From positions 192,092 through 256,091 of the forward strand of contig CAYMVY010000002.1 in the NCBI GenBank assembly GCA_964394405.1: a DNA stretch of 64,000 bases, written 5' to 3'. Both the position numbers and the translations under genes were made by a program. Within the stretch, counting starts at the first letter, position 1, and the number at the start of each line of letters is the position of its first letter. This document shows, piece after piece, positions 21,847 to 64,000 of the stretch. This stretch comes from an uncultured Gammaproteobacteria bacterium. Its GTDB lineage: Bacteria > Patescibacteriota > Patescibacteriia > Magasanikbacterales > UBA922. The notes below the pieces were generated by a model, which was not told the origin of the DNA, did no database searches, and saw nothing but the letters and a program-made list of their open reading frames with translations.

Positions 21847-21861
21847 TATAAGTGTCTTGCA

Positions 21862-21890
21862 TTGACAGAAAGATATAATTATGCTACACT
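21862..21890 (+). promoter_or_regulatory. sigma70-type promoter TTGACA-17-TACACT upstream of the membrane protein gene
   Basis: exact -35, 17-bp spacer. Confidence 0.45.
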
Positions 21891-46364: not shown

Positions 46365-46367
46365 ATA

Positions 46368-46847: not shown

Positions 46848-46884
46848 AATTTATGGTACCTGGCCCTGGCCAGGATACTACCCC

Positions 46885-47544: not shown

Positions 47545-47554
47545 AAACGACTAC

Positions 47555-48310: not shown

Positions 48311-48322
48311 TCTATCTCCCTC

Positions 48323-48724: not shown

Positions 48725-48733
48725 ATAACTTTA

Positions 48734-48833
48734 TTGACAGTGATAATGACGTGTGTTATAATTTATACAGTTTTGGTTTCCAGCATAGTGCTGGTAGCTC
48801 CGCTCCTCGCTTCGGCGAGGAGCTGTTTTTTTA
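48734..48833 (+). ncRNA. candidate small RNA (about 65 nt) defined by a perfect consensus promoter and an intrinsic terminator
   Basis: TTGACA-17bp-TATAAT at 48734-48762; transcript carries a CCAGCA-tag-TGCTGG hairpin and a GCTCCTCGC-UUCG-GCGAGGAGC hairpin followed by T7; no ORF. Confidence 0.4.
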
Positions 48834-49244
48834 TTCAAATTGTTTGAGAAATTCAGACCTAATATTCATGAACTGTTCATGATTCAGTTTTGTCTTTTTA
48901 CGTAACAATCGTTTTGCACTAATTACTCTGCCTTGCGTAATATTGACACTACGCAACTCTCCATCAAGGGTAACATATACTTGATACCACGGTCTTTCTT
49001 TTTTTATTTTAGTGCTTAACGGAAGAATAAAGCACATATCCGACGAATATTTTTTGAGCACGACTATTGGTCGCTCAAATAGTTCATTTTTTCCATCTAT
49101 TTCGTATCCTATATTTTTCCCTAATGCTGCCCACCAAATTTCTTTTTCACGAAAATATTTCTCTTTTTCAGAAGATTCAACATGATGTCTAATCTTCTTT
49201 TTTGTCCACGCAACAAAAACCTGCGCGATTTTCTGAACATCCAT
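48831..49244 (-). CDS. PemK/MazF-like family protein (putative endoribonuclease toxin fold)
   Basis: EIWWAALGKNIGYEIDGKNELFERPIVVLK resembles the MazF/PemK N-terminal consensus; no adjacent antitoxin ORF. Confidence 0.4.
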   Translation of the reverse strand: MDVQKIAQVFVAWTKKKIRHHVESSEKEKYFREKEIWWAALGKNIGYEIDGKNELFERPIVVLKKYSSDMCFILPLSTKIKKERPWYQVYVTLDGELRSVNITQGRVISAKRLLRKKTKLNHEQFMNIRSEFLKQFE

Positions 49245-49286
49245 ATACCCTCCTTTTATATGAATTAATTATTGTAAACGATCTAT

Positions 49287-49745
49287 TTATTTTTCCGCAA
49301 TTTCTTTCACCTTCTCGAGCGCTTTTGGCCATATATCAGCAAACATTTCTGAGTACTCTTCATTTGTATCAATATCGACGATTACCTGCGTACCCCCGTC
49401 GCGGCTAACAAATGTATAATTCTCAAACGCTGGTGTCCATTTCTTCACCTCGTCACTCGTCGTGTCTTCTACTCCATCGTTAATCATTCCATAGTGCTCG
49501 AGGGAAATAAATTCATAGGGACGGTTCTCGGCAACATGACTCAACATGCCACCGATTTTTGACGGATCAGCAGGATTGGGCCCTAGGAATCTGATGTTTG
49601 AGCCCTGATTCCAATCACCTTCAAACCATCCGCCATGTTCATTGAACGGGAGTGTCCATTGGCGATAGGTGGCGTCCTGAATCATCGTATTCCAGACTTT
49701 TTCTGGTGATGCTGCAATAAATTTTTCAAAATGTAATTTTTTCAT
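49287..49745 (-). CDS. SRPBCC (AHSA1/START-like) domain protein
   Basis: 152 aa; EKVWNTMIQDATYRQW N-terminal motif. Confidence 0.65.
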   Translation of the reverse strand: MKKLHFEKFIAASPEKVWNTMIQDATYRQWTLPFNEHGGWFEGDWNQGSNIRFLGPNPADPSKIGGMLSHVAENRPYEFISLEHYGMINDGVEDTTSDEVKKWTPAFENYTFVSRDGGTQVIVDIDTNEEYSEMFADIWPKALEKVKEIAEK

Positions 49746-49829
49746 AAAATTTAGTTACATACGAATTACTAATCCCGACGTACGTCGGGACGAATTTACG
49801 AATTAAATCATTTAGAATAATTAGGTTAA

Positions 49830-50225
49830 TTAGAATAATTTCTCAAGCTTTCCTTTTCTTTTCACAATATTTTTGTAATCCCACTGAATTGTCTTTGACT
49901 TCTTGAGCCAGCGTTTGAGTTCACTCACTTTAATCTCCTCAGCTGAATTGTAGAATATTGACGCGTCTTTGAATTTCCCAGTGCCCTTCTCTAGACCTGC
50001 TTCATCAAAATCAGCACCGCTCCAGAACATGAGTCGAATTCCCTTTTTCTGCTTACTATACCCGACTATGGGATTGCCATCGAGAAACCAGACTGGATGT
50101 CTGTGCCAGACTTTATTCTCAGATTTCGGAAGACCTTTGATAATCTCACTAGCCAATGCATTGCAGATTTTCTTGTCTTCTTTCCCTAGTGCTTTGTTGT
50201 ACGTGGTAATGTCTTTGTGTAGCAT
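49830..50225 (-). CDS. DUF1801 (YdhG-like) domain protein
   Basis: start moved to MLHKDITTYNKAL; DUF1801-like core KVWHRHPVWFLDGNPIVGYS; the ORF-track N-terminal extension overlaps another small ORF. Confidence 0.5.
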   Translation of the reverse strand: MLHKDITTYNKALGKEDKKICNALASEIIKGLPKSENKVWHRHPVWFLDGNPIVGYSKQKKGIRLMFWSGADFDEAGLEKGTGKFKDASIFYNSAEEIKVSELKRWLKKSKTIQWDYKNIVKRKGKLEKLF

Positions 50226-50263
50226 AAAAAACTTAAAATAGGCTATAGTATTAGTATAGCATA

Positions 50264-50404
50264 TTATTTTTTCTTTCGAGGTGAAGGCTTCTTTTTCTTG
50301 TAATATCCTGGCCAACATTTGGGGCAGACTGGTAACTCGCTCGAGCGAGTGTATGTGTGGCCGCGGGAGCAGGTTTTTTTGGTGGGGTTGTGGAGGTTGG
50401 ACAT
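50264..50404 (-). CDS. possible small zinc-ribbon protein (46 aa; weak resemblance to ribosomal protein L31)
   Basis: hand translation MSNLHNPTKKTCSRGHTYTRSSELPVCPKCWPGYYKKKKPSPRKKK*; C/H-x..-CPKC; no SD. Confidence 0.25.
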   Translation of the reverse strand: MSNLHNPTKKTCSRGHTYTRSSELPVCPKCWPGYYKKKKPSPRKKK

Positions 50405-50479
50405 AGTTATTTTTTAGCAAATTTATTTACAGTTTTTCTAGGTATAGATAGTTTAAAATATATGTATAATATAACTTCT

Positions 50480-51379
50480 TTACTCTTCATCAAAAAAATC
50501 ATTGTCCATTTCCTTTATACTATATTGTATTTTTATTTGAACACCAACTTCATATTTAATCATCAAATCAGCAAGCTGTTCACCGTCGATTAAAATTATT
50601 TTATGGTTAAAAGCACTTTTTGCTTTATGTATTGCAGAATCATCAAAAATCGAAGTTGTTACAAATATACCTTTACTCACATCACCACTCATTGCTCCAA
50701 TAAAATTTCTAATATCCGGTTCCCTAACTTTATTTTTTTCATTATATCTTTTTGCCTGGATATAAATTTTCTCAAGACCTAATTTGTCTTGACTTATAAT
50801 ACCATCTATTCCACCATCTCCAGATTTTGGTGTTTCTTGAAAATCACCATACCCCATTTTTTGAAATAAAATTAAAACAACTTTCTGAAAAAAATAAGGA
50901 TTAGTGTTGTGCAATTTTTCAAGTAAGTCACTTTTTAAAGTTTCTTGAATATCTCTAAAACCAATATCAATCATGTCTTGTGGAGAAAATTTCTCCGAAA
51001 CTGCTTTACCTATTTCCTCTTTTGTTTTTTCACCTCCTCCAGATTTAAAAGCGACAAAAGATGGGTACTTAAATAAAAATTCCACATCAACACTCGCTAA
51101 ATTTAAGGAAAGAACTTTTTGACCCTCTTTGGTAATTTTTATCTTTCCTCTTTCAGGCTGTTCGACAAGTCCCGCTTTTTTTAAATATGTCCTGCCCCAT
51201 GATACCCTATCAAAAAACCTACTATAACCATTTGATACCGTCTCCTTTTTTTCGTCTTCAGTTAAATTAAAATATTCTTTTTCTAAAATATCTGAAACAT
51301 CTTTAATAGTCCTCATCTGTTCATCACCTAAAACTTTCAATATAGGTAACATTGTCTCATCGAATTTTGGAATTGCCAT
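50480..51379 (-). CDS. mrr: Mrr-family type IV (modification-dependent) restriction endonuclease
   Basis: N-terminal Mrr_N winged helix (MAIPKFDETMLPIL); C-terminal PD-(D/E)xK core GDGGIDGI...QAKRY. Confidence 0.8.
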   Translation of the reverse strand: MAIPKFDETMLPILKVLGDEQMRTIKDVSDILEKEYFNLTEDEKKETVSNGYSRFFDRVSWGRTYLKKAGLVEQPERGKIKITKEGQKVLSLNLASVDVEFLFKYPSFVAFKSGGGEKTKEEIGKAVSEKFSPQDMIDIGFRDIQETLKSDLLEKLHNTNPYFFQKVVLILFQKMGYGDFQETPKSGDGGIDGIISQDKLGLEKIYIQAKRYNEKNKVREPDIRNFIGAMSGDVSKGIFVTTSIFDDSAIHKAKSAFNHKIILIDGEQLADLMIKYEVGVQIKIQYSIKEMDNDFFDEE

Positions 51380-51395
51380 ATCTTTTGTTTTATTT

Positions 51396-52166
51396 CTAAT
51401 TTATTTTCTGAAAAATAAATAAATGTTCGTGCATAATCAAAAGGAAATTGTTTTCTTTTGATCTTTTTACCCAAAAACCTGTTGCCTTGCAATTAAACTG
51501 TCGCTTGATGATATCTTCTTTCAGCGCAAAACCTGTCTGCAAACACTTATCCATTATTTTATATGCAAGCGGCTGATACATCTTGTTGCGTCTCGTATCC
51601 CCCATAAGAATTGCGCAATATTTTCCCTTTTTCAGCACACGAAACAATTCTTTTACTACTTTTCCCATTTCTTCTACAAAAAGTTCAATATCATGGATAT
51701 TAGACAGATCGTCCTCTAGTTTTCCTTCACTGTATTTCACAATATCAGCGTATGGCGGATGTGTGAGTACGAAATCAATCTCTTCATCTTTGATAAAATG
51801 CAAATTTCGAGCATCGCATTTCTTTATCCGCTGTTTTGCTTTATTATCAACCTCAAAATTCAGTGCATTTTTTGTGCGCTCGAGTGCTTCTTCATTCACA
51901 TCAACACAAGTGATATGGCGATTCAATATTTTTGCCTCAATCGCTGTGGTACCACCACCAATCATGCAATCAAGTAAATGATCACCCTCTTTGGAATATC
52001 GCAAAATCAAATTCCGAGCAACCTCTGGTGCCCAGTTTCCACGCCAATCTGATTTGTGTGTTGCCCAGTTTCCACGACGAGGAAATGCCCAAACAGTTGT
52101 GCATTCTAGTTCAAAATTATCTGGGTGAAGTTTTACCTCCTTTATTTTCTGCATTTTCATTACCAA
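51396..52166 (-). CDS. DNA methyltransferase, N4/N6 family (DpnA-like second methylase; 256 aa)
   Basis: SAM motif LLDCMIGGGTTAIEA and catalytic THPPY; 7-nt overlap with the upstream REase gene; length equals S. pneumoniae DpnA (256 aa), figure quoted from memory. Confidence 0.7.
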   Translation of the reverse strand: MVMKMQKIKEVKLHPDNFELECTTVWAFPRRGNWATHKSDWRGNWAPEVARNLILRYSKEGDHLLDCMIGGGTTAIEAKILNRHITCVDVNEEALERTKNALNFEVDNKAKQRIKKCDARNLHFIKDEEIDFVLTHPPYADIVKYSEGKLEDDLSNIHDIELFVEEMGKVVKELFRVLKKGKYCAILMGDTRRNKMYQPLAYKIMDKCLQTGFALKEDIIKRQFNCKATGFWVKRSKENNFLLIMHEHLFIFQKIN

Positions 52167-53026
52167 TTTAATTTACTAAGAACACCATTTTCCACCATAT
52201 TCAAGTTAAACACATACTCATTATGATTATAAGTTTCTTCTAGTGGTCTTTTCGCTGTTTTCCAACCCAATCCATCTGTTATCCATACAAAATCAATATC
52301 TTGAGATTTGAGTTCAGTATATAAATCTCTAAATTCTCCAGCAACTGCTTTTAGTTTTGATCCTCCTCCGTTATAAAAATTAACTTCAAATAATTTCAAC
52401 TTCTTGCTCGAAGGATTAAAGACAGCAAAATCAAAACTTCTCTCAGATTTGTTAACCCGAACATCAATGCCCCACTTATTCCTAATATCTGTTGCTCTAG
52501 ATTGTCTTAAATATTCAAGATTATTTTGTTCACAAAGATTTTCTATATGAGCCTCCACTATTTTTTCCATAAGACTTCCTCCTCGATTTTTTCTACCATT
52601 ACTATCCAGACCAACTTCGACACCAATGACGTAATCAACTAAATTCTTTATTCCCTCTTTTTTAAATAAATTAACCAAACCTGTTTTTTCAAGAAAATTA
52701 AAATACTTTTCCGAAGCACTATCACCCACTTCAGGATTACGGAAATTAAGGAGCTCAACACTACCGTCACTCAAATTAAATATTTCTAATTCTTTTTCAC
52801 GAACTGCTAGTAACACAGGTAATGCTTTTACAATATCAGGATTACTCACAAATAACTTTTTAAACTGTGATTTTAAATCCTCTTTTCCCAAGAGATAATT
52901 CAACTTATTGAGAATAATTTCAAGTTCCGCACCTCCTGCAAAAACTTTCTCCCAATTTACAAAATAATCCCAAGTTTTAATTGAATTTTTAAGCGTAGCT
53001 ATTAAATTTTGAAAATCCATCTTCAT
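52160..53026 (-). CDS. DpnII/MboI-family type II restriction endonuclease (GATC), 288 aa
   Basis: length and gene context (between the Dam-like and the second MTase, as in the dpnM-dpnA-dpnB cassette); the DpnII family is assigned from memory of the family, not by a search. Confidence 0.55.
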   Translation of the reverse strand: MKMDFQNLIATLKNSIKTWDYFVNWEKVFAGGAELEIILNKLNYLLGKEDLKSQFKKLFVSNPDIVKALPVLLAVREKELEIFNLSDGSVELLNFRNPEVGDSASEKYFNFLEKTGLVNLFKKEGIKNLVDYVIGVEVGLDSNGRKNRGGSLMEKIVEAHIENLCEQNNLEYLRQSRATDIRNKWGIDVRVNKSERSFDFAVFNPSSKKLKLFEVNFYNGGGSKLKAVAGEFRDLYTELKSQDIDFVWITDGLGWKTAKRPLEETYNHNEYVFNLNMVENGVLSKLNW

Positions 53027-53029
53027 ACG

Positions 53030-54778
53030 TTAAAACATTTTAATTTGTTTGAATATTTTTTCACCTAAATCACCACCTCTTTTTTTAATTGCCACTTCCG
53101 GATTATCTACAAAAATATTTCTGTATTCACCTAGATCTCGATTAAATTTAAATTTTGATTTTGAATAAATATTTTCAATTTTCTTATCTAATATATCGTT
53201 ACCGGCATCATTATTATCCTGTTCATGCAGTAACGTTAAATTACCAATTTTATTTACAAATCCAGCAACCTGTTCTTTGGTGAACCCCCATTTTACTGGG
53301 TTCTGTGGGAGAATGTGTTCAATATTTGGATCTAAGATAGCTATCCCTCTATCACTAAAATCATAATTCCTCATTACTTCTGTAAGCAGATAATCAATTA
53401 ACTTCGAATCAGACCCATACTCTAGATTATTAGAAAAATTTTTCACAAATTCGTCCATTTTATTCACTAAAGAGAATAATGTTTTAAATTTTTTTCCAAC
53501 TTCTCGCTGATAATCTACTCCGCTATAACGTGTTGCACTCTCACATATAGAAGCAAATATCTTTTCATAATCAGATGGATTAACACTTACAAATTTAGCC
53601 AGTATGGCAAAATTAAGAAGTCTAACAACATCCTCACGGAAATTCCCGGTCTTATAACTTGAATCGTTTAGTTTTTTACTATACAGAGCAAGTAAAACTT
53701 CAAATACTTGCTCTAGTCCGTTTAGATGCCTAAACACTCTTATTATTCTCTTTGTCTTTTCATCTTTTTTTAATAAAGATAAATTTCCATCATAATCTTC
53801 AAATCGAAATCCTATATATATTTGAGCATCCTGGAGTAGTTCTTTCGTGAATTTCAAAACATCATTACCTGATTTTCGCTCAATTTTTTCTTTTTTAATA
53901 ATTTTAAAAAGTCTAGAACTGGAAATAAGCCCATTTCTGGAAATCCAGTAGTGTCTTAGAAATTTCGGAAAAAGAACGGTCTTTGTATTCTCGAATAGAG
54001 ATTCAATTTGACTCCAATTTATTTCAATACTCTCTCGTATACTCCTTGTTTGTGTTGATTTTAATACAGCATTTTTTAATAGATCTGCAACCGAAAGACC
54101 CAAGCCAGTAGAGTTCAGTCCTTCAAAAAGATCATACACGTCATTTTCTGATCTTACAACAATAGCAATAAATTGTACCGATAATATCTTTTGGATCAAT
54201 TTATCTACCTCATCTTCTTTTTTATCTTTTATCTCTTTTTTCACCAAAGTAACAATATATCTAAGATTAGACAGGTATTTAGATTGATTATCATCAAGTT
54301 TTCCATCGAATTTGTCTAAACCAATAACATCTGGGCTTTCTATTAAATTCTGATATATCTCAATTAAATTTTCCTTTCCTGGAATAAGACGGGGATGTTT
54401 CTGTTGTGTTCTAGGGTTTCTCCAATATAAATAGTCATCAACAAGATTAATTAATTCCTTGATAGAGTTAGTAATATATTTCTCCTCATATTGAGAGAAG
54501 ATATATTTAAAAGCAATCAAAAATAAAGAGATTGTTGTTAATCTTTGTTGTCCATCAACAATGACCAGACTATCATCTGACTCTTCAGATGGCTCAAGAC
54601 AGACAAGGTTACCTATAAAGTACCCGTCCTCAGCCTCCACCAGAACTTCCCATAGTTCTCCCACATGAGAAGTCTTCCATGCATATGGTCTTTGGTTATG
54701 GGGCATGGAGAACTTTTTATAAGTATCACAAAGTGTTGAGTAAGTATAGGGTTTAGTATCAACAAAATTATTTATCAT
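53030..54778 (-). CDS. GmrSD/BrxU/SspE-like DUF262 + DUF1524 protein (ParB-like NTPase/nuclease plus His-Me finger)
   Basis: N-terminal DUF262 DGQQR motif (IVDGQQRLTT); C-terminal DUF1524 HxxP (IEHILPQNP). Confidence 0.8.
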   Translation of the reverse strand: MINNFVDTKPYTYSTLCDTYKKFSMPHNQRPYAWKTSHVGELWEVLVEAEDGYFIGNLVCLEPSEESDDSLVIVDGQQRLTTISLFLIAFKYIFSQYEEKYITNSIKELINLVDDYLYWRNPRTQQKHPRLIPGKENLIEIYQNLIESPDVIGLDKFDGKLDDNQSKYLSNLRYIVTLVKKEIKDKKEDEVDKLIQKILSVQFIAIVVRSENDVYDLFEGLNSTGLGLSVADLLKNAVLKSTQTRSIRESIEINWSQIESLFENTKTVLFPKFLRHYWISRNGLISSSRLFKIIKKEKIERKSGNDVLKFTKELLQDAQIYIGFRFEDYDGNLSLLKKDEKTKRIIRVFRHLNGLEQVFEVLLALYSKKLNDSSYKTGNFREDVVRLLNFAILAKFVSVNPSDYEKIFASICESATRYSGVDYQREVGKKFKTLFSLVNKMDEFVKNFSNNLEYGSDSKLIDYLLTEVMRNYDFSDRGIAILDPNIEHILPQNPVKWGFTKEQVAGFVNKIGNLTLLHEQDNNDAGNDILDKKIENIYSKSKFKFNRDLGEYRNIFVDNPEVAIKKRGGDLGEKIFKQIKMF

Positions 54779-54781
54779 ACT

Positions 54782-55798
54782 TTAATAGTTTGTCACTAAA
54801 ACTTCAGTGATCTTCCCTCTATTTGCACTCTTCGAATTTATCGCTCTTCCAGCCTCCACTTTTGAAATTCGAACCCCTTTATGTCCTGAATAAATTTTAT
54901 TGATAAAAGGGGTGTCAGAATTAGAAAGCATTACAAAACAACCACGCTTGTGCAATTCTAAGAACGTATTCCGTAGTTCTACCTGTTCTTTATCAAGAAA
55001 ACTATCTTTTGTATATGATGTAAACGAGGCGGTCTTGCTCACTGGATAGTATGGCGGATCGAAATAAATAAAATCACCTTTTTTTGCTTTTTTCAGAACC
55101 GCTTTATAATCTTGATGCTTTATTTCTACATTCTGCAATGCTTTTGAGACTTTCCTCAGGTTCTCAGCATCACAAATTAATGGATTGGTGTATCTGCCAA
55201 ATGGAACATTGAATTCTCCCCTGCTATTGACTCGGTACATTCCATTGAACCCAGCTCTATTAAGAAAAATAAATCGAGAAGCAATTTGTAAATCCGATAG
55301 TTTTTTTGGATTCTGCGAACGAACTTTCAAGAAAAAATCTTTATCGTATTTATATTTTTTCAAAGACGTAATCAATCCTTCAACATTATTTTTTATTACA
55401 TTATATGTTGTTACCAACTCAAAATTCATGTCCGAAAGAAATGCTTTTTCTGGAAGTAAATCGAAAAAGACTGCGCCACCACCAACAAATGGTTCAAAAT
55501 ATCTTCCTTTTTTTGGATCAAACTTCTCCGGAGGATATAAATCAAGCAATCTAAACTGTTTTAACAATTGACGTTTTCCACCTACCCATTTCACAAATGG
55601 TTTTGGTCGCGCATCAATTATTTTTGCAATTTCTTGTAAAAAATCAGTCGCATTCGACACCATTCCCAAAACACGCTTAGCATAAATAGTATTGATATCA
55701 AAAACTTTTTGGATTTCTTTCACCTTTTGATTATGCGTCATATGTAAGCATGGGTTTACTATGATTTCATAGTACCATATAAACGCTTTTTTGTTCAA
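54782..55798 (-). CDS. dam: Dam-family N6-adenine DNA methyltransferase (GATC-type, DpnM-like)
   Basis: FVKWVGGKRQLL SAM-binding motif, FDPPYY catalytic motif; the ORF-track start is probably about 45 codons too long. Confidence 0.85.
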   Translation of the reverse strand: MNKKAFIWYYEIIVNPCLHMTHNQKVKEIQKVFDINTIYAKRVLGMVSNATDFLQEIAKIIDARPKPFVKWVGGKRQLLKQFRLLDLYPPEKFDPKKGRYFEPFVGGGAVFFDLLPEKAFLSDMNFELVTTYNVIKNNVEGLITSLKKYKYDKDFFLKVRSQNPKKLSDLQIASRFIFLNRAGFNGMYRVNSRGEFNVPFGRYTNPLICDAENLRKVSKALQNVEIKHQDYKAVLKKAKKGDFIYFDPPYYPVSKTASFTSYTKDSFLDKEQVELRNTFLELHKRGCFVMLSNSDTPFINKIYSGHKGVRISKVEAGRAINSKSANRGKITEVLVTNY

Positions 55799-55843
55799 AT
55801 ATTTTTAGGGCACTAAAAACCCACCTTTTTCAGGCGGATTTTA

Positions 55844-55875
55844 GGGGGTTATAGCCCGGCCGGGCAGGGTATCAG
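55844..55875. repeat. direct repeat copy 1: GGGGGTTATAGCCCGGCCGGGCAGGGTATCAG (contains the 12-bp GC palindrome GCCCGGCCGGGC)
   Basis: near-identical copy at 56516..56548; the pair brackets a single gene. Confidence 0.6.
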
Positions 55876-55946
55876 AATGTACCGCTCATGAAAGCCGAAA
55901 TCTGGATTGCCCTTGGTAATCAGTGATAACGAAAACTACCACCAGA

Positions 55947-56441
55947 CTAAGGTACCAAATTCTTCCAAAATTTTTTGCACCTTCTCCATCTTGTACCTAC
56001 AGTAACCTTACTTTTCTTGAATTCGAGACCTCTCACATAACTTGCGTGCACAGAAGTGATCACATCTTTGACATTCTGCCATGTATGTTCTCGATTTTCA
56101 CCAAAATAATTTTGTATGTCTTTGTCGAATACGTCTCCCCCATACACCACTTCTCCGCTTTCTATCTTATCGAAAATACTATATATAAATCGCTCAATAC
56201 TTCTACTTAATCCATTACCCTCACAAGTATCAGGAGCAAATTTGTTATGATCAGTTTTGTTTTCCCGCATACACCCTATGACATACTTCAAGAAGTGCGC
56301 GTCATCGATATTATTATTGAGCTTTTTGCAGCTAGGGCATGGGTAATTCGCGTCTAACGGTACATAAAGATTTCGACATTTTTGACATCGATATTCATGA
56401 TTGATAATACTATTAAACGGTGTGCCACAAAGTAAACTCAT
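55947..56441 (-). CDS. hypothetical protein with an N-terminal zinc ribbon (C-x2-C...C-x2-C)
   Basis: YRCQKCRNLY...YPCPSCKKL; 164 aa; flanked by 32-bp direct repeats, adjacent to the R-M island. Confidence 0.45.
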   Translation of the reverse strand: MSLLCGTPFNSIINHEYRCQKCRNLYVPLDANYPCPSCKKLNNNIDDAHFLKYVIGCMRENKTDHNKFAPDTCEGNGLSRSIERFIYSIFDKIESGEVVYGGDVFDKDIQNYFGENREHTWQNVKDVITSVHASYVRGLEFKKSKVTVGTRWRRCKKFWKNLVP

Positions 56442-56515
56442 ACAATACGACTAACATTGATATAGATACACGTAAATTCTCCAATGCGAAAGTATTTTGT
56501 TCATGCAATAATTCT

Positions 56516-56548
56516 CGGGGGTTATAGCCTGGCCGGGCCGGGTATAAG
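56516..56548. repeat. direct repeat copy 2: GGGGGTTATAGCCTGGCCGGGCCGGGTATAAG
   Basis: 28/32 identity with copy 1. Confidence 0.6.
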
Positions 56549-56561
56549 TTGTATAAATGTA

Positions 56562-56954
56562 TTACTCACTCGCCGTACCATCAAAATGTTCTTCATCTGC
56601 TTCTGCATCTTCTTTGGTCACATGGACTACTCCATCTCGATGATTGGGTGGTGCATAGACGGTATAGAGCTTGAGCGCGGTCGCGCCTGTATTCACGATA
56701 TTGTGTCTGGCGCCTGCAGGAACGACGACAGCTGTCCCCGCGCCTATCTCCCGCTCCTCACCATCGAGGATCGCCTTCCCTGCTCCCGCTTCACAGCGGA
56801 TAAATTGGTCGAGCTGGTGGACTTCTTCTCCGATGTCTTCGCCTGGCTCGAGGCTCATGACCACGAGCTGGCAGTGGTGCGCGGTATAGAGGACGGTACG
56901 AAAATTAGTGTTCTCGAGTGATAGTTTCTCGATATTGCCGATATATCCGTTCAT
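56562..56954 (-). CDS. cupin domain protein
   Basis: cupin_2 motifs G(x)5HxH...and...GxxxxxPxG...H; 130 aa. Confidence 0.65.
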   Translation of the reverse strand: MNGYIGNIEKLSLENTNFRTVLYTAHHCQLVVMSLEPGEDIGEEVHQLDQFIRCEAGAGKAILDGEEREIGAGTAVVVPAGARHNIVNTGATALKLYTVYAPPNHRDGVVHVTKEDAEADEEHFDGTASE

Positions 56955-56975
56955 AGGATGTGGGGTTAGATGAAT

Positions 56976-57287
56976 TTATGCTTTGGGTGGATATTTTTTT
57001 GCAGATTTCAACAGTTTTTTCTGTACTGCTTCTTCCAGATCAATACCGAGCGCGTCAGCGAGAGAAATAATGCAATAGAGGGTATCTGCAAGCTCGTCTC
57101 CAATATCTTCTGTGTGTTCCCTGAGATATGTCTCCAACTCTTCCCCATTCATGAATCGGAAATGTTCCAATATTTCAGCAGCTTCGGTAGAAATTCCGAT
57201 TGCAAGGTCTTTGGGATTGTTCCCATCCCCCTCTCTCCAACCTCGTGCATCCCGCCAATCAAGAATTTTCTTGGTAATATCTTTCAT
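56976..57287 (-). CDS. MazG-like nucleotide pyrophosphohydrolase
   Basis: EAAEILEHFRF and EDIGDELADTLYCIISLADALGIDL (E-x2-E...D motifs). Confidence 0.65.
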   Translation of the reverse strand: MKDITKKILDWRDARGWREGDGNNPKDLAIGISTEAAEILEHFRFMNGEELETYLREHTEDIGDELADTLYCIISLADALGIDLEEAVQKKLLKSAKKYPPKA

Positions 57288-57290
57288 AGT

Positions 57291-57812
57291 TTAGTTCACT
57301 TCAAAAAACTGTACTTCAATATTTTTTTCTACATGAGCGCCCAAGAAATTTATCAGCGCGTCTGCAATCTCGCGCGGACTAGACATCTCATGTACATCAA
57401 GTACCACACTCCCTATCTCTGCACCCGTATCCTTGCTATACATAACCAATCTCCCTGGTTTTTTCTCGGTGAAAATTGATTTGATCAGTGTTTTCTCTTC
57501 TTCGGTCACATGGAGAAGTTTGATGATTACATCCAGCCCTTCCTCTGGGCTCTGCTCCCAATCTACTTCTTCGATCAGCTCATCAAGATCTTCTTCGGTA
57601 TATCCATGTTCTAGAGCTTCCTTGATTTTCTGGGCGAGTTCAAAGATCTCTGGTCGCATCATGACCCCTTCTTCGACAGGATTGCCCAAGGCAACTGATG
57701 CAGCAACCCTCACTTCATCTGCCGTAGCCTGAATACGCATGACCAACTGATCGAGTTCGTTGGCTATACGTACGTGTTCCTGGTCATCTGGTGGACGAAA
57801 TTTTTCTGACAT
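57291..57812 (-). CDS. hypothetical acidic protein
   Basis: start moved to MSEKFRPPDD; the ORF-track 32-aa N-terminal extension is hydrophobic low-complexity. Confidence 0.4.
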   Translation of the reverse strand: MSEKFRPPDDQEHVRIANELDQLVMRIQATADEVRVAASVALGNPVEEGVMMRPEIFELAQKIKEALEHGYTEEDLDELIEEVDWEQSPEEGLDVIIKLLHVTEEEKTLIKSIFTEKKPGRLVMYSKDTGAEIGSVVLDVHEMSSPREIADALINFLGAHVEKNIEVQFFEVN

Positions 57813-57902
57813 AGTAATCGTATGGTTATATATAAAGTATAACAACAAGAAATAACAAGTACAAACAATATGTAGTGACAAATGGATACAATATGTTAGT
57901 AT

Positions 57903-57931
57903 TGACAACAGGGGTCTTTTTGGCTAGAGTC
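57903..57931 (+). promoter_or_regulatory. sigma70-type promoter TTGACA-17-TAGAGT
   Basis: exact -35; followed by a GCTTACC-gcagt-GGTAAGC hairpin in the leader. Confidence 0.5.
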
Positions 57932-57992
57932 ATACGCTTACCGCAGTGGTAAGCAGATGATCAACCGTCCATTCGGAAACAGGAGTCTAGAG

Positions 57993-58199
57993 ATGGCACA
58001 GGTCAGTCTGAGATACATCCACAAGCTCGTCTACATGTTTGGACCATGTCCCCGTCATCCCGACGTGACCCTCACGAGCAAGTCGCCCACCTGCGCCAAG
58101 TGCCGGTGGGAGCGCGAGCTCTACGAGAAGGGCATGGTGCTCACCCACGAGTACATCCAGCTCCAGGTGCCCGGGTACGAAGAGGAGGCCAACAAGTGA
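57993..58199 (+). CDS. hypothetical small Cys-containing protein, GC-rich (about 60% GC)
   Basis: 68 aa; AGGAG 7 nt upstream of the ATG; CPRH...CAKC; followed by an 11-bp-stem terminator at 58225-58275. Confidence 0.35.
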   Translation: MAQVSLRYIHKLVYMFGPCPRHPDVTLTSKSPTCAKCRWERELYEKGMVLTHEYIQLQVPGYEEEANK

Positions 58200-58343
58200 C
58201 AGGGGCCACACACCGGGCCCCCCCAATGACCGAGATATCGCTTGTATGCATATCTCGGTCGCTTTCATTTTAGGGGTATATACAGACAAAAATAAGACTT
58301 ATCCCCATATATACCTTGCAATACATAGTACCTTATACTATAG

Positions 58344-58697
58344 TTGTTTTATATGGAACACTTTGATATCGATAAATTCATAGAGAACAATTCTGCCCAG
58401 ATGCGCAAAGGCTCGCTTGAATTAGCGATTCTTTCTATTATTGGAAAAGGGTCAGTATATGCAGGTGATATTATCGAAAAGCTCCAGGCTAATAATCTGA
58501 TCGTGGTCGAAGGCACGCTCTATCCCCTGCTCTCTCGGATGAAGCGCGGTGGATTATTGGAGTATTCGTGGGTAGAGTCTCCTAGTGGTCCGCCACGAAA
58601 GTATTATGGGCTTACGGCAGAAGGACGATCCGTGCTTGAAAGACTTGCCAAAGAATGGAAGGATATGACAGGATCAATTACACGGTTGATTGAATAA
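58344..58697 (+). CDS. PadR family transcriptional regulator
   Basis: LAILSIIGKGSVYAGDIIEKL...GTLYPLLSRMKRGGLLE wHTH. Confidence 0.8.
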   Translation: MFYMEHFDIDKFIENNSAQMRKGSLELAILSIIGKGSVYAGDIIEKLQANNLIVVEGTLYPLLSRMKRGGLLEYSWVESPSGPPRKYYGLTAEGRSVLERLAKEWKDMTGSITRLIE

Positions 58698-58815
58698 ATA
58701 TAACTTTTACCTTTCAAAACGTCATTCCCGTGAAACTTGTCCTCGACTTAATCGGGGAACGGGAATCTAAGATCCCCGCTTTCGCGGGGATGACATAAAA
58801 AAACTTTATAGACTT

Positions 58816-59874
58816 ATGAAAACAACAATATCAATCAATCTCGGTGGTATCGCATTCACGATCGATGACGACGCGTATCGTGAACTAAAAACATATTTGG
58901 ACGCACTCTCGAATCATTTCAAACAAGAAGACGGTGGAGATGAGATACTTGCAGACATTGAAGCTCGTATTGCCGAAGAATGCGCACGCAAGCGAGAAAA
59001 TGGAATTCAAGTCATCTCTATTTCAATGGTACAAGAGATTATTTCTCGCATGGGACGTGTCGAAGATCTGACGGGAGAAAAGGCAGGAGAGACTGATGGA
59101 ATCAAAATCGAAGAACCTTATTTTGCACGTACTGACAAAGAAAAAACCAAGAGTCCCAAACGTCTCTATCGAAACCCAGAAAATGCAATGCTCGCAGGTG
59201 TCGCTTCCGGACTTGGGGCGTATTTCAATATCGACCCCTCGATTCCTCGCATCGCATTTGTACTTCTCACGCTCTTTGGCGGATCTGGAATCATTATCTA
59301 TATTATTCTATGGCTTGTATTACCTGAAGCAGACACCCCATTGAAACAGTCAGAACTTCGAGGCGAGTCACCTACGATTAAGGATATTGAAAAAAAGTTT
59401 AAGGACATGGTTGATGTTGGCAAAAAAAAAATTTCTGAAATAGACACTGAAAAAGCAAAAGAATCAGTAAAACAAGGATTCAAAACAACCGTGAGCACGG
59501 TATCGCGTACCGCAGGATCAATTGGTGGTGGACTCGTGAGAGTAATCGCAATCGTAGTCGGCATTGCGCTCATTATTGCAGGTGTTTTGAGTATTGCCGG
59601 AGTGACCATAGTTGGAACGAGTATCTTGTTTGGCACTTCAACGATACTCCTAGATGTGGCACCTGAAATCATACTTCTTGAAGCGCCTATTATGACCACT
59701 CTTCTAGTCTCACTCTGGTTGGTAGCAGTGTTTCCACTTATGTTTCTTATAACCATTGGCGCGGCACTCGCCGGACAGCGAAGACTGAAATTTGGTTTTG
59801 GTTTTGCGCTATTCACCATTCTCTGGATTGTTGCGCTTTCAGTGGCTGGGACATTGGTGATTGGGAGTGTATGA
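58816..59874 (+). CDS. PspC domain-containing membrane protein
   Basis: PspC motif RNPENAMLAGVASGLGAYFNIDPSIPRIAFVLL; multiple C-terminal TM helices; paired with PadR. Confidence 0.7.
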   Translation: MKTTISINLGGIAFTIDDDAYRELKTYLDALSNHFKQEDGGDEILADIEARIAEECARKRENGIQVISISMVQEIISRMGRVEDLTGEKAGETDGIKIEEPYFARTDKEKTKSPKRLYRNPENAMLAGVASGLGAYFNIDPSIPRIAFVLLTLFGGSGIIIYIILWLVLPEADTPLKQSELRGESPTIKDIEKKFKDMVDVGKKKISEIDTEKAKESVKQGFKTTVSTVSRTAGSIGGGLVRVIAIVVGIALIIAGVLSIAGVTIVGTSILFGTSTILLDVAPEIILLEAPIMTTLLVSLWLVAVFPLMFLITIGAALAGQRRLKFGFGFALFTILWIVALSVAGTLVIGSV

Positions 59875-59920
59875 AACTCAACATAACAAAACATCCCGAC
59901 TCATTCGGGATTTTTTTCAA

Positions 59921-60493
59921 TCATTTAGATCGCTTCCAGGAGAATAATGCTTCGACCATCTGACTTCCTATAATCGCGAGGATGAGCAATACGCCGTACC
60001 CGACGAGTAACTGAGAAAAAGAATACGGAAGTGAACGAAGTGAGCCCAAAATAAATGCACTATACCAGGAGACCATAGAAATACTACCCAATGCGAATGC
60101 GAGTCTTCTCAGATTTCGTCTTTTTGCATCACGTCCTAATTTCCAATCAATATGCATGAGACGCGGAGCCACGAGCGAATTCAAGGCAAATCCATTCAGC
60201 GACACGACAATTACAACCATTGCTTTCAATAAAAATTTTGATGAGTGTGAGTACGCCTGAATATCTGATAGAAAAATTAATATTCCACTGATCCATAGTA
60301 TCGCGAGCCCTACCCACACAACCTGTGACAACGCACCAAGTACCGTATGTTCTTTCTTACTAATACGAAGATCAGTTAAAAAACGGAAAAACATGATATC
60401 CGCAATCGTTGCTCCTCCGAGACCAAATATGAATCCGAGCATGTGGAACGCAACAAATACTGATTTGTATTCTAACAGTAATTCAAAAAACAT
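59921..60493 (-). CDS. hypothetical membrane protein
   Basis: 190 aa, 5-6 TM helices. Confidence 0.45.
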   Translation of the reverse strand: MFFELLLEYKSVFVAFHMLGFIFGLGGATIADIMFFRFLTDLRISKKEHTVLGALSQVVWVGLAILWISGILIFLSDIQAYSHSSKFLLKAMVVIVVSLNGFALNSLVAPRLMHIDWKLGRDAKRRNLRRLAFALGSISMVSWYSAFILGSLRSLPYSFSQLLVGYGVLLILAIIGSQMVEALFSWKRSK

Positions 60494-60588
60494 AGATAGC
60501 TAAATTGGAGTGTAGTGTAACATATGCTCGCGCAATACAAAAGCAGTCTCCTGATTCGGAAGACTGCTTTTGTTGTTTTCTATTACAC

Positions 60589-61671
60589 TTATTTCATCAT
60601 AAACCCTGCTGGCAATCCACCTCCGCCTCCAAGCATTGCTCCGACAAATGCCCCCATGAATTCATTCATAGTTTTAGCGCCTGTTGGTGCCGAAACCATT
60701 ACTTTTTCATTGAAATTTCGAAGATCGAGTTCTACTGCAATCGTTCCACTACTTGGTTCTGTATCAGTTTTTGCAATAGTTACCCCAAATAAAGTTTTGT
60801 AGAGATAGTAATCTTTGGTACCTACCCAAATTTCTCCATTAGTCATTTCAGCTCGAGTGAAAAATTCATTCATTTTCTTTTCGTCTTCGATTGAAGGCGC
60901 CTTTCCATTCACCTCAGTACTCACTGCTCGAGCCACCCGCATTACTTCTGCTTCGTTCAAAGTTACTTTGTAGTGACGAGTAGTAATTCCACCCAGACTC
61001 TCTTCACCCAAATCTTCGGTCACCTGGAAATATTTTCCCCCACTGATAATATCTTTCACTTTATCAGCAGTCTCCTCATTCATAGTCGAAGTGGTTGCAG
61101 GAACAGTAGTATCATCACCTTCCTTTGGATCAAGCTGTACCCACATATTGGTGAGTGATGATAAATTCAATTTACCTAACACTGGGATTGTATTGAATTT
61201 GAAATAGGTATCTGCGCCTATATTTTTCAATTCAATTTCCGCTGAACCATTATTTGGAAATTCAGGTGAAGTAAGTGTGAATTTTGCTCCTGACTGTAGT
61301 TTTTCCCAGTTTCCAAATTCTGATGTTCCGCTGAATGCGACAGAGAATGCAACAGGCTTATCCGCACTTGTAGCTCCAGCTCCAGGCAAACTTGCCAATG
61401 GATTCTTGCCACCTTCGATATTTGCAGTCAGTTTCCCTGCATATTCTACAGATTCTACCCCTGACATTGAACGTGACATCCGATCAACTACACCTTCGGG
61501 AGTAGTAGGCGTCGCATTCCCGGCAGATTTATAAATACCGTACCCAATCAATAATACAACCACCAATAATACTATTTTCCCTACTCCGGATTTCTTTCCT
61601 GGAGTTGCTACCGTAGCGTCTGCCATAGATATAGATAAAAATAAATAATCTAAATAAAATGTGTAGGGCAA
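60589..61671 (-). CDS. hypothetical secreted/membrane-anchored protein
   Basis: N-terminal TM anchor (KIVLLVVVLLIGYGIY), then a beta-rich domain and a Gly-rich C-terminus. Confidence 0.45.
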   Translation of the reverse strand: MPYTFYLDYLFLSISMADATVATPGKKSGVGKIVLLVVVLLIGYGIYKSAGNATPTTPEGVVDRMSRSMSGVESVEYAGKLTANIEGGKNPLASLPGAGATSADKPVAFSVAFSGTSEFGNWEKLQSGAKFTLTSPEFPNNGSAEIELKNIGADTYFKFNTIPVLGKLNLSSLTNMWVQLDPKEGDDTTVPATTSTMNEETADKVKDIISGGKYFQVTEDLGEESLGGITTRHYKVTLNEAEVMRVARAVSTEVNGKAPSIEDEKKMNEFFTRAEMTNGEIWVGTKDYYLYKTLFGVTIAKTDTEPSSGTIAVELDLRNFNEKVMVSAPTGAKTMNEFMGAFVGAMLGGGGGLPAGFMMK

Positions 61672-61675
61672 TTGT

Positions 61676-62152
61676 CTAATTTTTCTTCTTCGCTGTCAAC
61701 TGCCCCCGATTACCCCATCCATTTTCATAATTTGTAATATACGCTTTCATGGGGACTTTTTTTACCAATTTTCCAATTATTTCAAGCGGTAGATCGTCAA
61801 GTTTTTTGAATCGGAGACACCCTTTTCCCATATCCAGTTTCTTCCCTGTTTTTTTCCATTCATCTTTGAACCATTGATCTACACCTTTGTTTCCATATAC
61901 GCACATGAGATAGAGTGCCATATAATTTTTCTGGTTTGCAAGCCCCAAGAACATGAGCGGTTTCTTGTTGTATGAATATGGATATGTCTTCAGTGGAATC
62001 TCATAGGTGATCATCCCCCAGTTTATTACTTCCACATAGCCTTTCGGAAGATTTTTCTTAACTACTCTTCGTACTTCAGTCAAAGCCTTTTTCCGATCAG
62101 GTGGTAGACTATTCAGATATTCGGTAACCGTTGTTGCCGTAGTTTTGAACAT
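61676..62152 (-). CDS. DUF1801 (YdhG-like) domain protein
   Basis: TVTEYLNSLPPDRKKAL...EVINWGMITYE...LMFLGLANQKNYMALYL; start moved to MFKTTATT. Confidence 0.6.
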   Translation of the reverse strand: MFKTTATTVTEYLNSLPPDRKKALTEVRRVVKKNLPKGYVEVINWGMITYEIPLKTYPYSYNKKPLMFLGLANQKNYMALYLMCVYGNKGVDQWFKDEWKKTGKKLDMGKGCLRFKKLDDLPLEIIGKLVKKVPMKAYITNYENGWGNRGQLTAKKKN

Positions 62153-62156
62153 ATGA

Positions 62157-62465
62157 TTATTCAATCGTCTCATCAAGAATGATTCGTTTCTCAAATCCTC
62201 CGCGTGCTTCTCGTTTTTTCACTCGCACTTCTTCTAACTGTTCTTTAGATACACCGTTATATTCCCCAATCGCATAGACGACCTCGAGAATATCCGCGAG
62301 TTCTTCTGTAGTACGGTCGGAATTAAACTCCACCACTTCTTCATCTAATTTTTCAATCAATTTTTCTTCGTATTCTTTGTCACCCGCAATATGTGTGACG
62401 ACTTTTTCACCATTCCCCTCAATCAGAGCAGGAATATTATCTCGAACCAGTTTGTGATATTTCAT
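62157..62465 (-). CDS. small MazG/HisE-like NTP pyrophosphohydrolase
   Basis: KLVRDNIPALI...EELADILEVVYAIG; start moved to MKYHKLVRDN. Confidence 0.55.
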   Translation of the reverse strand: MKYHKLVRDNIPALIEGNGEKVVTHIAGDKEYEEKLIEKLDEEVVEFNSDRTTEELADILEVVYAIGEYNGVSKEQLEEVRVKKREARGGFEKRIILDETIE

Positions 62466-62539
62466 ATATACAAAAATAAAGTATGATCTCATCATACCAA
62501 GGCTTATAGTGAATTACAACTCCCAAAAAAAACGAAGCC

Positions 62540-62578
62540 GCCCAGTTTTACGAGTGGGCGGTGAGCTCGGTTGGAGGT
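62540..62578 (-). terminator. intrinsic terminator (minus strand)
   Basis: on the minus strand CGCCCA-ctcgtaaaact-TGGGCG GCTTCG TTTTTTTT. Confidence 0.6.
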
Positions 62579-63037
62579 TTAGACGAATGTGAACTTGGAC
62601 TCAGCGAGGATCTTCCGCGCGCGATCGCGACTGATCACCTGGAACTCCACGCCCCCGATCGTGACCGAGAGGGTGCGTGCAGACCCCAGATAATACAGCT
62701 GGAACCTGCTGACCATGAACCTCGCATGCTCGATCACGTAGTCGATCGATTCGATGCATTGGTCCGGTCGCCCCTTCTCGCTGTCGAGAGCAAAGAAGAA
62801 CTCAGTGTCTCCCAGCACTCGAGCGAGCACGATGAAGTCATCTCGACCGAGGTCGCCATTGCCGATCCGAGAACCCCTCTGATCGAACCAGCCGGCCTGC
62901 GACATGATGCGGTTCTCACCGCGCGACTGCCCCGGTGCAATCGAGGCACGAGTCCACAACGATTCTGCAGTCAAACGATTCATACTCCCCCTTTTCATTT
63001 CTCCTACCAGTTCTACAAGCACCCTGTTTGTACTCAC
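62579..63037 (-). CDS. hypothetical protein, GC-rich (about 58% GC); start uncertain (GTG 63037 or ATG 62998)
   Basis: minus-strand consensus promoter TTGACA-17-TATAGT at 63061-63089; the opposite-strand ORF is low-complexity. Confidence 0.4.
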   Translation of the reverse strand: MSTNRVLVELVGEMKRGSMNRLTAESLWTRASIAPGQSRGENRIMSQAGWFDQRGSRIGNGDLGRDDFIVLARVLGDTEFFFALDSEKGRPDQCIESIDYVIEHARFMVSRFQLYYLGSARTLSVTIGGVEFQVISRDRARKILAESKFTFV

Positions 63038-63060
63038 AAAACTGGTAGGAAAGACACTGC

Positions 63061-63089
63061 ACTATAGAATATTTTTTTCCCTTTGTCAA
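63061..63089 (-). promoter_or_regulatory. sigma70-type promoter TTGACA-17-TATAGT (minus strand)
   Basis: exact -35 and a 5/6 -10 hexamer read on the minus strand. Confidence 0.5.
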
Positions 63090-63137
63090 TATCAAACAGC
63101 CTCTTGGTAGAGGCTGTTTTTTATGAATGAGATTATG

Positions 63138-63536
63138 TTACTTCGCATTCGTATCTGGCTGATGGATTCCAAATACATTTCCTTCGGTATCCAGATAGTA
63201 CCCTTGCCATGCCATTCCAATGAGAGCCATCTTCGGCATTGCAACTATTCCTCCTGCTGCGAGAATTTTCTTCTCAGTCTCATCATAGTTTGCCACATCC
63301 ATGGTGCAGGTAAAAGCATTGGTGCCACATTCTTTTGGTGGAGTGTCTGCAGGACGTCGAAGTAATCCTCCGTTGATCCCCAATTCTTTACTATCTTTTG
63401 GAGCGGTCATAATGATCCAATATTCCATCTGTCCACCTTCCCATTTGGTAATTTCCCATCCAAATACGTCGCGGTAAAATTGCGCTGCGCGTTCTGGATC
63501 AGCAGCCTGAATTTCAAAATGTACCGGTCGATTCAT
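63138..63536 (-). CDS. VOC (glyoxalase/bleomycin-resistance) family protein
   Basis: 132 aa; VHFEIQAADPERAAQFYRDVFGWE N-terminal beta-alpha-beta-beta-beta motif. Confidence 0.7.
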   Translation of the reverse strand: MNRPVHFEIQAADPERAAQFYRDVFGWEITKWEGGQMEYWIIMTAPKDSKELGINGGLLRRPADTPPKECGTNAFTCTMDVANYDETEKKILAAGGIVAMPKMALIGMAWQGYYLDTEGNVFGIHQPDTNAK

Positions 63537-63552
63537 ATGATTACGTTAAAAA

Positions 63553-63921
63553 TTATTTCTTCTTTTTTAGTTTATTATTTTCTTTCACACGAAATAACAC
63601 AATTTTTTTTATTAAACTAAACGGCATTGGTTCATCAAGCTGAAATTGTGCTGACCCTTTGCCACTTTTATATTTTGATAATTCTTTTTTGAATTTTGCC
63701 GTGCCCGAAGGTGTTGGATAAAACCCAATATGTTTTTTATACGCACCAAAATATACGAGAGGCTTCCCATTGAGTTTGTACGCAGGCATCCCGTAACTGA
63801 TTGATTCCACCGCACTCGATGCACCTGATCGAACAATCTCTCGAATTTTTTTCAAAATCAACTGCACATTCTTCGGATGCAATTTCACATATTCACCAAA
63901 TGTTTTGACCTGTGTATTCAT
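63553..63921 (-). CDS. DUF1801 (YdhG-like) domain protein
   Basis: GMPAYKLNGKPLVYFGAYKKHIGFYP core; third DUF1801 paralog in the window. Confidence 0.6.
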   Translation of the reverse strand: MNTQVKTFGEYVKLHPKNVQLILKKIREIVRSGASSAVESISYGMPAYKLNGKPLVYFGAYKKHIGFYPTPSGTAKFKKELSKYKSGKGSAQFQLDEPMPFSLIKKIVLFRVKENNKLKKKK

Positions 63922-64000
63922 AGAGATTAGAAACTTCCTGTTTTTACTTCACCCGCGCGTTTGTAATTGGCAAATACTACTCCACTTGGAGAAACTTTTG

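Follow-up and report, generated by a model that had tools for sequence, protein, structure and literature searches.

A rare zinc-ribbon gene bracketed by direct repeats beside a restriction island in a Magasanikbacterales genome: a possible insertion with long target duplication

We analysed a 64,000-nucleotide stretch of contig CAYMVY010000002.1 from an uncultured Magasanikbacterales bacterium (the whole stretch is referred to as the window) and found that a single gene, encoding a zinc-ribbon protein of 164 amino acids (aa), lies between two near-identical direct repeats, r1 and r2, at the edge of a restriction island. Our preferred explanation, to which we assign a rough probability of 0.4, is that the segment carrying this gene was acquired horizontally, independently of a recombinase, as an insertion with long target duplication. 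The features that point to an event of this kind are a sharply bounded repeat of about 38 bp that is unique in the 64 kb searched, a small foreign insert, the lack of a mobility gene or a transfer RNA (tRNA), the position of a repeat beside a stop codon, and a restriction-modification (R-M) locus. If this explanation is true, the locus would be a clean example in which a candidate-phyla-radiation bacterium gained a gene without a recombinase and duplicated a target of about 40 bp. Such bacteria have few mobile elements, and the growth of their defence islands is poorly known. The insertion class is known and poorly understood; what is added here is another candidate case and an unnamed protein family, and neither the insertion nor the family overturns current views. 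The elements of the bracketed locus are as follows.

55838..55875, plus strand: r1, the left repeat copy; 32-nucleotide (nt) core at 55844-55875, GGGGGTTATAGCCCGGCCGGGCAGGGTATCAG
56511..56548, plus strand: r2, the right repeat copy; 32-nt core at 56517-56548, GGGGGTTATAGCCTGGCCGGGCCGGGTATAAG
55876..56510, minus strand: bracketed segment, the putative insert, 635 bp; guanine-cytosine (GC) content 0.37
55947..56441, minus strand: zinc-ribbon gene, 164 aa, the sole open reading frame (ORF) between the repeats
56562..56954, minus strand: Cupin_2 gene upstream of the insert, which lies in the cupin 3' flank
55806..55844, minus strand: intrinsic terminator directly past r1, AAAAUCCGCCUGAAAAAGGUGGGUUUUU (55844-55813), -14.6 kcal/mol, z = -3.35

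Direct repeats and the bracketed segment

The cores of r1 and r2, spaced 673 nt apart, are identical at 29 of 32 positions in an ungapped comparison. The match grows 6 nt leftward without a gap, giving 38 nt with 33 identical positions, and under stringent local alignment it stops abruptly at both ends of these 38 nt. Longer duplications were considered and rejected: growth beyond this length appeared only under permissive gap settings and amounted to noise, and a further extension by TACATT requires a 7-nt indel and is possibly due to chance. Chance was excluded for the repeat itself, since its 22-nt core, with up to 3 mismatches allowed, had no match in 100 dinucleotide shuffles. Local direct repeats in general (at least 26/30 identical, no more than 3 kb apart) occurred at six loci of the window and at none in shuffled sequence. 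An earlier sequence-only reading of this DNA had described 32-bp direct repeats flanking only the 164-aa gene, and our results confirmed this, with the second copy starting at 56517, one position away from the 56516 given before.

We then searched for the repeat elsewhere. No third copy was found in the window (64 kb, from a contig at least 257 kb long), even when 12 of 32 mismatches were tolerated, and exact matches to the core were absent from three public collections (genome, metagenome and viral). In the available sequence the repeat is thus not a scattered repetitive extragenic palindromic (REP) element, the possibility for which the sequence-only reading had suggested this search. An independent Logan assembly of the same organism (L002, 6.2 kb) was 100% identical through both repeat copies, and the longest exact run common to r1 and r2 was 13 nt; a k-mer assembly join was therefore ruled out.

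The repeats have a GC content of 66-69%, compared with 41% for the genome. A 12-bp GC palindrome had been attributed to the repeats in general. The perfect palindrome, GCCCGGCCGGGC, proved to be present in r1 only (55854-55865), and the equivalent sequence in r2 is GCCTGGCCGGGC. Each copy also forms a longer, imperfect palindrome with 9-10 of 13 arm pairs matching, that of r2 spanning 26 nt.

Around this locus nearly every gene is on the minus strand. Read in that direction, a MazG-like gene and the Cupin_2 gene are followed by 14 nt, r2, about 75 nt, the zinc-ribbon gene, 71 nt, r1 and the terminator. The start of r2 therefore lies 14 nt past the cupin stop codon, and r1 abuts the strong terminator, which a simple consensus scanner had missed. 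GC content is 0.37 in the insert, 0.41 in the window and 0.53 in the cupin gene, and no similarity between the insert and its flanks was found beyond the 38-nt repeats. The cupin gene is kept at 70-90% identity across Patescibacteria, including Kaiserbacteria, Andersenbacteria, Doudnabacteria and the Parcubacteria group, which places the host in that radiation. The zinc-ribbon gene stands between this core-like gene and what appears to be the cupin terminator. Neither the insert nor its neighbours (Pfam, PADLOC and PHROG scans) nor 20 other ORFs of the window showed a recombinase or transposase domain.

The course of events that we propose is as follows. The ancestral order would have been cupin gene, repeat and terminator, with one repeat copy already present as the target. 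A horizontally acquired 635-bp segment with the zinc-ribbon gene would have entered between repeat and terminator, in the 3' flank of the cupin gene, and this insertion would have duplicated about 38 bp of the host target, leaving two direct repeats. The zinc-ribbon gene would now sit inside the cupin transcription unit and use the old terminator. Because no terminator lies past r2 and a strong one lies past r1, the two genes appear to be co-transcribed, and the terminator past r1 probably ends a cupin-zinc-ribbon transcription unit.

Insertion with long target duplication has been described as a recombinase-independent gain of R-M genes (Nobusato et al. 2000, Gene 259:99), and the same class was found in genome comparisons of Type I-IV restriction genes (Furuta et al. 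2010, Nucleic Acids Research 38:2428, PMC2853133). In the published cases the repeats exceed 30 bp (46-47 bp, for example, with 44/46 to 47/47 identical positions), are unique in their genome and often lie across start or stop codons; mobility genes are lacking, the class includes a single-gene insert, mcrA, and the taxa concerned are mostly naturally competent (PMC2853133). The present locus resembles these cases in its near-identical repeats of more than 30 bp, unique in 64 kb, in having no transposase or integrase, in its small insert of deviant GC content, in the position of a repeat next to a stop codon, in its R-M locus and in belonging to a lineage thought to be naturally competent. It differs from them in that the inserted gene is not a restriction, modification or Type IV gene but an uncharacterised zinc-ribbon gene beside an R-M island, and in that its copies are more diverged (33/38, against mostly 44/46 to 47/47).

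The likely source of the segment was indicated by its closest homologues. Nucleotide homology to loci L014 (85.6%) and L001 (82.5%) is limited to positions 55924-56454 of the window; it begins 13 nt ahead of the start codon, runs to 23 nt past the stop codon and leaves gaps of 48 nt to r1 and 56 nt to r2. In these loci the homologues (80-84% aa identity) belong to a different multi-gene array beside a Type III R-M system, without such a repeat. The tail past the zinc-ribbon stop codon matches a remnant, in L001, of a 102-aa gene that is intact in L014. The window therefore carries a piece of an L001/L014-like array that was transplanted to a new site. The transplanted gene is intact, and its ratio of nonsynonymous to synonymous substitution rates (dN/dS) is 0.13 at a dS of 0.65-0.81 against two close homologues, which indicates purifying selection and a transfer that was not very recent. 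Bracketing repeats were absent at all eight homologue loci examined, and the 32-mer was absent from every homologue locus fetched; the repeats therefore belong to the present site and not to the gene.

A second sharply bounded bracketing pair (16006-16047 and 16732-16772) was counted in support of an insertion and hints that the process may recur in this genome. The inner segments of this pair and of a further one (21117/21808) bear no resemblance to their flanks. The three bracketing repeat sequences are mutually unrelated, so that variable target duplications fit better than one recombinase site. Where the sequence-only reading had left the choice between insertion scars, att-like sites and protein-binding sites, we favour a scar, in the form of a target duplication, over the other two.

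Several points weigh against this explanation. The GC-rich, partly palindromic repeat looks like a functional element rather than an arbitrary target, and the search for further copies covered 64 kb of a contig that is at least four times as long. With five differences in 38 nt the event was not recent, which leaves no means of dating any later origin of the similarity. An empty site, with one repeat copy, is the defining proof for the class; none was found, L010 being the only syntenic relative. In L010 the cupin gene is 87.5% identical at the nucleotide level and the flanks are 70-74% identical. Resemblance to the window stops at the cupin stop codon, and the 53 nt from there to the contig end contain no repeat, which is a weak argument against the repeat being an ancient part of the cupin flank; divergence is too high for non-coding sequence to be compared. 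Other closest relatives of the cupin gene were too short or non-syntenic for an empty-site comparison, and exact-protein look-ups for strain variants (zinc-ribbon, cupin and Dam proteins) returned the same organism only.

The zinc-ribbon protein and its genomic contexts

The 164-aa protein begins with a zinc ribbon, C19-x2-C22...C35-x2-C38 (CxxC...CPxC). In a 29-sequence alignment of the family, these four cysteines and two prolines are at least 90% conserved, and a helical region with a recurrent F..FD.LE pattern follows the ribbon. An AlphaFold2 (AF2) model (predicted local distance difference test score, pLDDT, 83.8; predicted template modelling score, pTM, 0.75) has short strands at residues 17-41, then a five-helix domain and a basic C-terminal tail. 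Family members showed weak matches to several zinc-ribbon Pfam models; the 164-aa protein itself matched no Pfam or PADLOC family, and nothing significant was found in PHROGs, in PDB sequences or by Foldseek against PDB and BFVD. The N-terminal ribbon and uncharacterised C-terminal domain noted earlier from the letters are therefore borne out, by conserved cysteines and by a helical domain of no known family.

The family is rare. A word-indexed search of 5.8 billion proteins returned the protein itself and one relative at 80% identity, and HMMER over 1.84 billion cluster representatives returned 28 relatives at E <= 0.001. These 28 clusters do not make it the conserved housekeeping homologue that the sequence-only reading had held out as the opposite outcome. 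Almost all relatives measure 125-211 aa, with the same layout; one measures 261 aa. The isoelectric point (pI) ranges from 4.7 to 9.5 in the family, which therefore has no uniform nucleic-acid-binding character. A phage or plasmid origin of the gene was rejected, as no relatives were found in IMG/VR, INPHARED or PLSDB. These results define a rare, small family with a zinc ribbon and a helical domain without a recognisable structural relative. In one locus (L024, 137-1849), a family member is fused to about 400 aa of tetratricopeptide repeats, 570 aa in total.

In the present genome the gene adjoins the following restriction island, all on the minus strand, which the minus strand reaches past the terminator and a promoter-like stretch.

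50480..55798, minus strand: restriction island, low GC content (0.30-0.37)
54782-55741/55798, minus strand: Dam-type methyltransferase (MTase)
53030-54778, minus strand: GmrSD
52160-53026, minus strand: DpnII restriction endonuclease
51396-52166, minus strand: N6/N4 MTase
50480-51379, minus strand: Mrr

The position at the edge of a defence island, here one of R-M and Type IV restriction genes, is thus upheld as first read from the sequence. The restriction island as a unit is not flanked by a repeat pair, and its far end showed no copy of the repeat.

We recovered 12 distinct contexts of the family, five of which have a DNA MTase or a complete R-M system no more than about 1.3 kb away. One is the Dam/DpnII island of the present window. 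Another is L014/L001, with Type III Res and Mod genes, L014 being a Ca. Magasanikbacteria metagenome-assembled genome sequence (DAORJA010000003.1); past Res and Mod, a co-directional array encodes proteins of 285 and 87 aa, the zinc-ribbon homologue (84% identical), proteins of 102 and 155 aa, an FtsK-like ATPase and a NERD protein. The other three are L003, where the gene has a divergent N6/N4 MTase and a DUF2779 protein as neighbours; L019, which encodes an AAA_15 ATPase, an N6/N4 MTase and, near smpB, a large serine recombinase; and L025, in which the genes directly upstream specify a MutH/Sau3AI-like endonuclease and a C5 MTase. The remaining contexts contain GIY-YIG, DUF1643 or Fpg genes, or nothing informative. 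By a rough estimate, only a few per cent of random genes in such genomes would have a DNA MTase that close. The linkage of the zinc-ribbon gene with MTases therefore looks real in this small sample, and we infer a putative accessory role of the protein in DNA methylation or restriction. The suggestion that it is an accessory gene of defence islands is strengthened by the 5/12 contexts near an MTase or R-M system; a defence function of the protein is hypothetical.

Like known R-M accessory proteins (C-proteins, Vsr), the 164-aa protein is small and is encoded beside MTase or restriction genes of several unrelated R-M types. Unlike C-proteins, it is a zinc-ribbon protein without a helix-turn-helix (HTH) domain; unlike Vsr, it has no Vsr or PD-(D/E)xK match. 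It also differs from both in its ribbon and helical bundle, which have no significant PDB or BFVD neighbour, and in its variable position relative to the restriction and modification genes. As a family found repeatedly beside MTases of different types, it is a testable candidate for an R-M accessory.

Further observations were made on the contexts. A DUF2779 protein adjoins two distant, unrelated members (L003, 2384-3880; L017, 3-524), and the two DUF2779 proteins are 41% identical. The idea of a conserved partner gene (about 300 aa) lying upstream in the family was rejected, as the upstream proteins are not mutually homologous. In L014 (1-10762), Res and Mod are followed in the same direction by six small genes, the zinc-ribbon homologue among them, an FtsK/SpoIIIE ATPase, NERD and FtsZ-like proteins and a separate protein with an FtsK-gamma domain; this array may form part of a more extensive module for defence or mobility. 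The array of L001 is that of L014 with the 102-aa gene deleted.

Alternative readings of the repeats

It is possible, but in our judgement unlikely, that r1 and r2 serve a tyrosine recombinase encoded elsewhere as att- or lox/dif-like recombination sites, the gene then being an excisable single-gene cassette or the remnant of a larger integrated element that lost its integrase. An imperfect 11-6-11 palindrome of 28 nt can be fitted to each copy, the r2 arms being 8/10 complementary, and direct orientation around one gene is the geometry of excision. The distant family member in L019 lies beside a large serine recombinase near smpB, and the lack of a repeat after the L010 cupin gene fits repeats that were brought by the insert. 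As in the cassettes of integron attC, IMEX (integrative mobile elements exploiting Xer) and pdif, one gene lies between short, partly palindromic sites with no recombinase in the module; unlike in those systems, no intI or Xer gene was seen in the window and no cassette array shares a site consensus. The attC sites of integrons measure 57-141 bp, carry R'' (RYYYAAC) and R' (GTTRRRY) motifs and occur with intI or a cassette array. An attC cassette was rejected, as the 32-38 nt of the repeat are too short, R'' and R' are not matched (GTTATAG fails GTTRRRY) and no integrase domain was found in the ORFs examined. A Xer/dif site has 28 bp in an 11-6-11 arrangement, with XerC and XerD arms and an inner ...ATAA-N6-TTAT..., and pdif modules use sites in inverted orientation, unlike the direct r1 and r2. 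A Xer/dif module (IMEX, pdif) was rejected because, although 11-6-11 can be drawn, the AT-rich pentamers are outermost and the centre is GC-rich, which leaves no dif consensus. Also telling against recombination sites are the lack of any recombinase in the insert, its neighbours and the 20 other ORFs, the lack of a tRNA target, the homologues at eight other loci without such sites, and the other bracketing pairs of the window, whose unrelated sequences offer no common site consensus.

It seems distinctly unlikely that the repeats are operators for a dimeric regulator, possibly the zinc-ribbon protein itself, that controls the zinc-ribbon gene and the Dam/DpnII operon. R-M operons are commonly under tight transcriptional control, for example by C-proteins. 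The partial dyad symmetry of the repeats would suit such a role, as would their nature as GC-rich islands in AT-rich intergenic DNA and their positions on the minus strand, where the zinc-ribbon start codon follows r2 by about 75 nt and the Dam start codon follows r1 by 46-103 nt. However, the three differences in the 32-nt core all fall at dyad-symmetric positions without preserving the symmetry, and r1 is separated from the Dam promoter region by the strong terminator. Repeats of this kind are missing around family members elsewhere, the spread of pI gives no consistent nucleic-acid-binding character, and the protein matches neither HTH nor any other known DNA-binding fold.

We consider it quite improbable that r1 and r2 belong to a dispersed REP-like or hairpin element specific to the species, two copies of which came to lie in consecutive intergenic regions by chance. 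The genome does have an AT-rich heptad family at no fewer than seven intergenic sites as well as several GC-rich hairpins, the trailer of a tRNA-Gly gene shares ATAGCCCGGCC with r1 (16/19, a score at the upper edge of the shuffles), and the search covered about a quarter of the contig. Against this, there are exactly two copies, 673 nt apart, with no other at up to 12/32 mismatches in the window and no exact core match in the three large collections. The repeat, moreover, folds as RNA no better than shuffled sequence on either strand (z = -0.25 to +0.8), and the heptad family is unrelated to it in sequence and composition. A REP element or bacterial interspersed mosaic element (BIME) fits poorly with only two, adjacent copies in the window and with the unrelated heptads of its dispersed family.

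Very improbable indeed is a combination in which the 32-mers would be sites of a chromosomal recombinase, single genes such as this one would be excisable, exchangeable Patescibacteria cassettes, comparable to integron or pdif modules but with a new kind of site, and the zinc-ribbon family would be a new class of R-M accessory or regulator.

Other known systems were compared and rejected as well. The bracketed segment resembles IS200/IS605 elements and their palindrome-associated transposable element (PATE) derivatives in size (about 0.7 kb), in having one ORF only, of about 150 aa, and in its direct, subterminal, imperfect palindromes. It differs from them in its hairpins, which are weak, non-significant and different between r1 and r2, in being a single copy, and in having homologues without such ends; no Y1_Tnp match was found, and the model is a ribbon with helices, not a Y1 HUH transposase. 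A structured RNA or terminator was rejected, as the repeats fold like shuffled sequence and the actual terminator is a separate hairpin past r1. No tRNA, transfer-messenger RNA (tmRNA) or Rfam family overlapped either copy in ARAGORN and Rfam searches. A tRNA or tmRNA fragment was rejected on these empty results, although the repeat start resembles a tRNA 5' end and CCACCA is close by, and a tRNA-targeted genomic island was rejected with no RNA gene at either copy. CRISPR (clustered regularly interspaced short palindromic repeats) was rejected for the pair on its defining features, and the template and variable repeats of a diversity-generating retroelement were rejected because the differences show no specificity for adenine and a reverse transcriptase is lacking.

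Other repeats and features of the window

The pair at 16006-16047 and 16732-16772 consists of 42-nt direct repeats, identical at 38 of 42 positions, and both copies are strong plus-strand intrinsic terminators (z = -3.9 and -4.4). They enclose 684 nt with a GC content of 0.52, in which there are a promoter-like site and a single ORF of 120 aa (16113-16475) without a Pfam match, and are set within a minus-strand gene array beside infA and ribosomal protein genes. Between infA and the terminator at 16006, about 440 nt (15560-16005) contain no convincing ORF and gave no Rfam match at E <= 1; this interval may be an unrecognised RNA gene that ends at the plus-strand terminator.

The copies at 21117-21160 and 21808-21851, 691 nt apart, are near-identical terminators (36/44). 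They lie in a GC-rich stretch (20850-23030; 0.53-0.60, compared with 0.41 for the genome), in which GC-rich ORFs alternate with AT-rich promoter and terminator modules. The same stretch contains repeats at 21528-21578 and 21633-21683, a 105-nt tandem repeat, three occurrences of the motif CGGAAGTACGC and a gene for a 341-aa membrane protein (22005-23030) without a Pfam match; no match was found in Rfam.

The dispersed AT-rich heptads (AAAACTC/AAAACTT, complement TTTTGAG) occur at 1844, 11472, 18220, 20051, 33103, 35234 and 44399. Copies are often arranged as inverted pairs (for example 11510-11604 and 33142-33236) that would form hairpins of about 130 nt, and they flank, among others, the znuA/ABC genes (18204/20035) and ftsW (33100/35231). 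This family is a REP-like element of the present genome.

The tRNA-Gly gene (6486-6558, minus strand) lies between complementary GC-rich arms at 6419-6480 and 6590-6632, the upstream arm being CCTTCGCCC...GGGCTACGGCGG and the downstream arm CCGCCATAGCCC...GGGCGAAGG, which suggests a long-range processing stem or a mobile hairpin. The similarity of its trailer to r1, by the common 11-mer ATAGCCCGGCC, is statistically marginal.

The right third of the window (46000-64000) is a variable accessory zone. It contains a MazF/PemK toxin gene (48831-49244), an AHSA1-like gene, two MazG-like genes, a PadR gene and three DUF1801 genes (49830-50420, 61676-62194 and 63553-63921), together with short GC-rich patches, including 58050-58235 and 62600-62950, where ORFs overlap on both strands. 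Tandem paralogues of 219 and 251 aa are encoded at 46885-47544 and 47555-48310, the second without a Pfam match, in DNA blocks that are 84% identical at a spacing of 700 nt.

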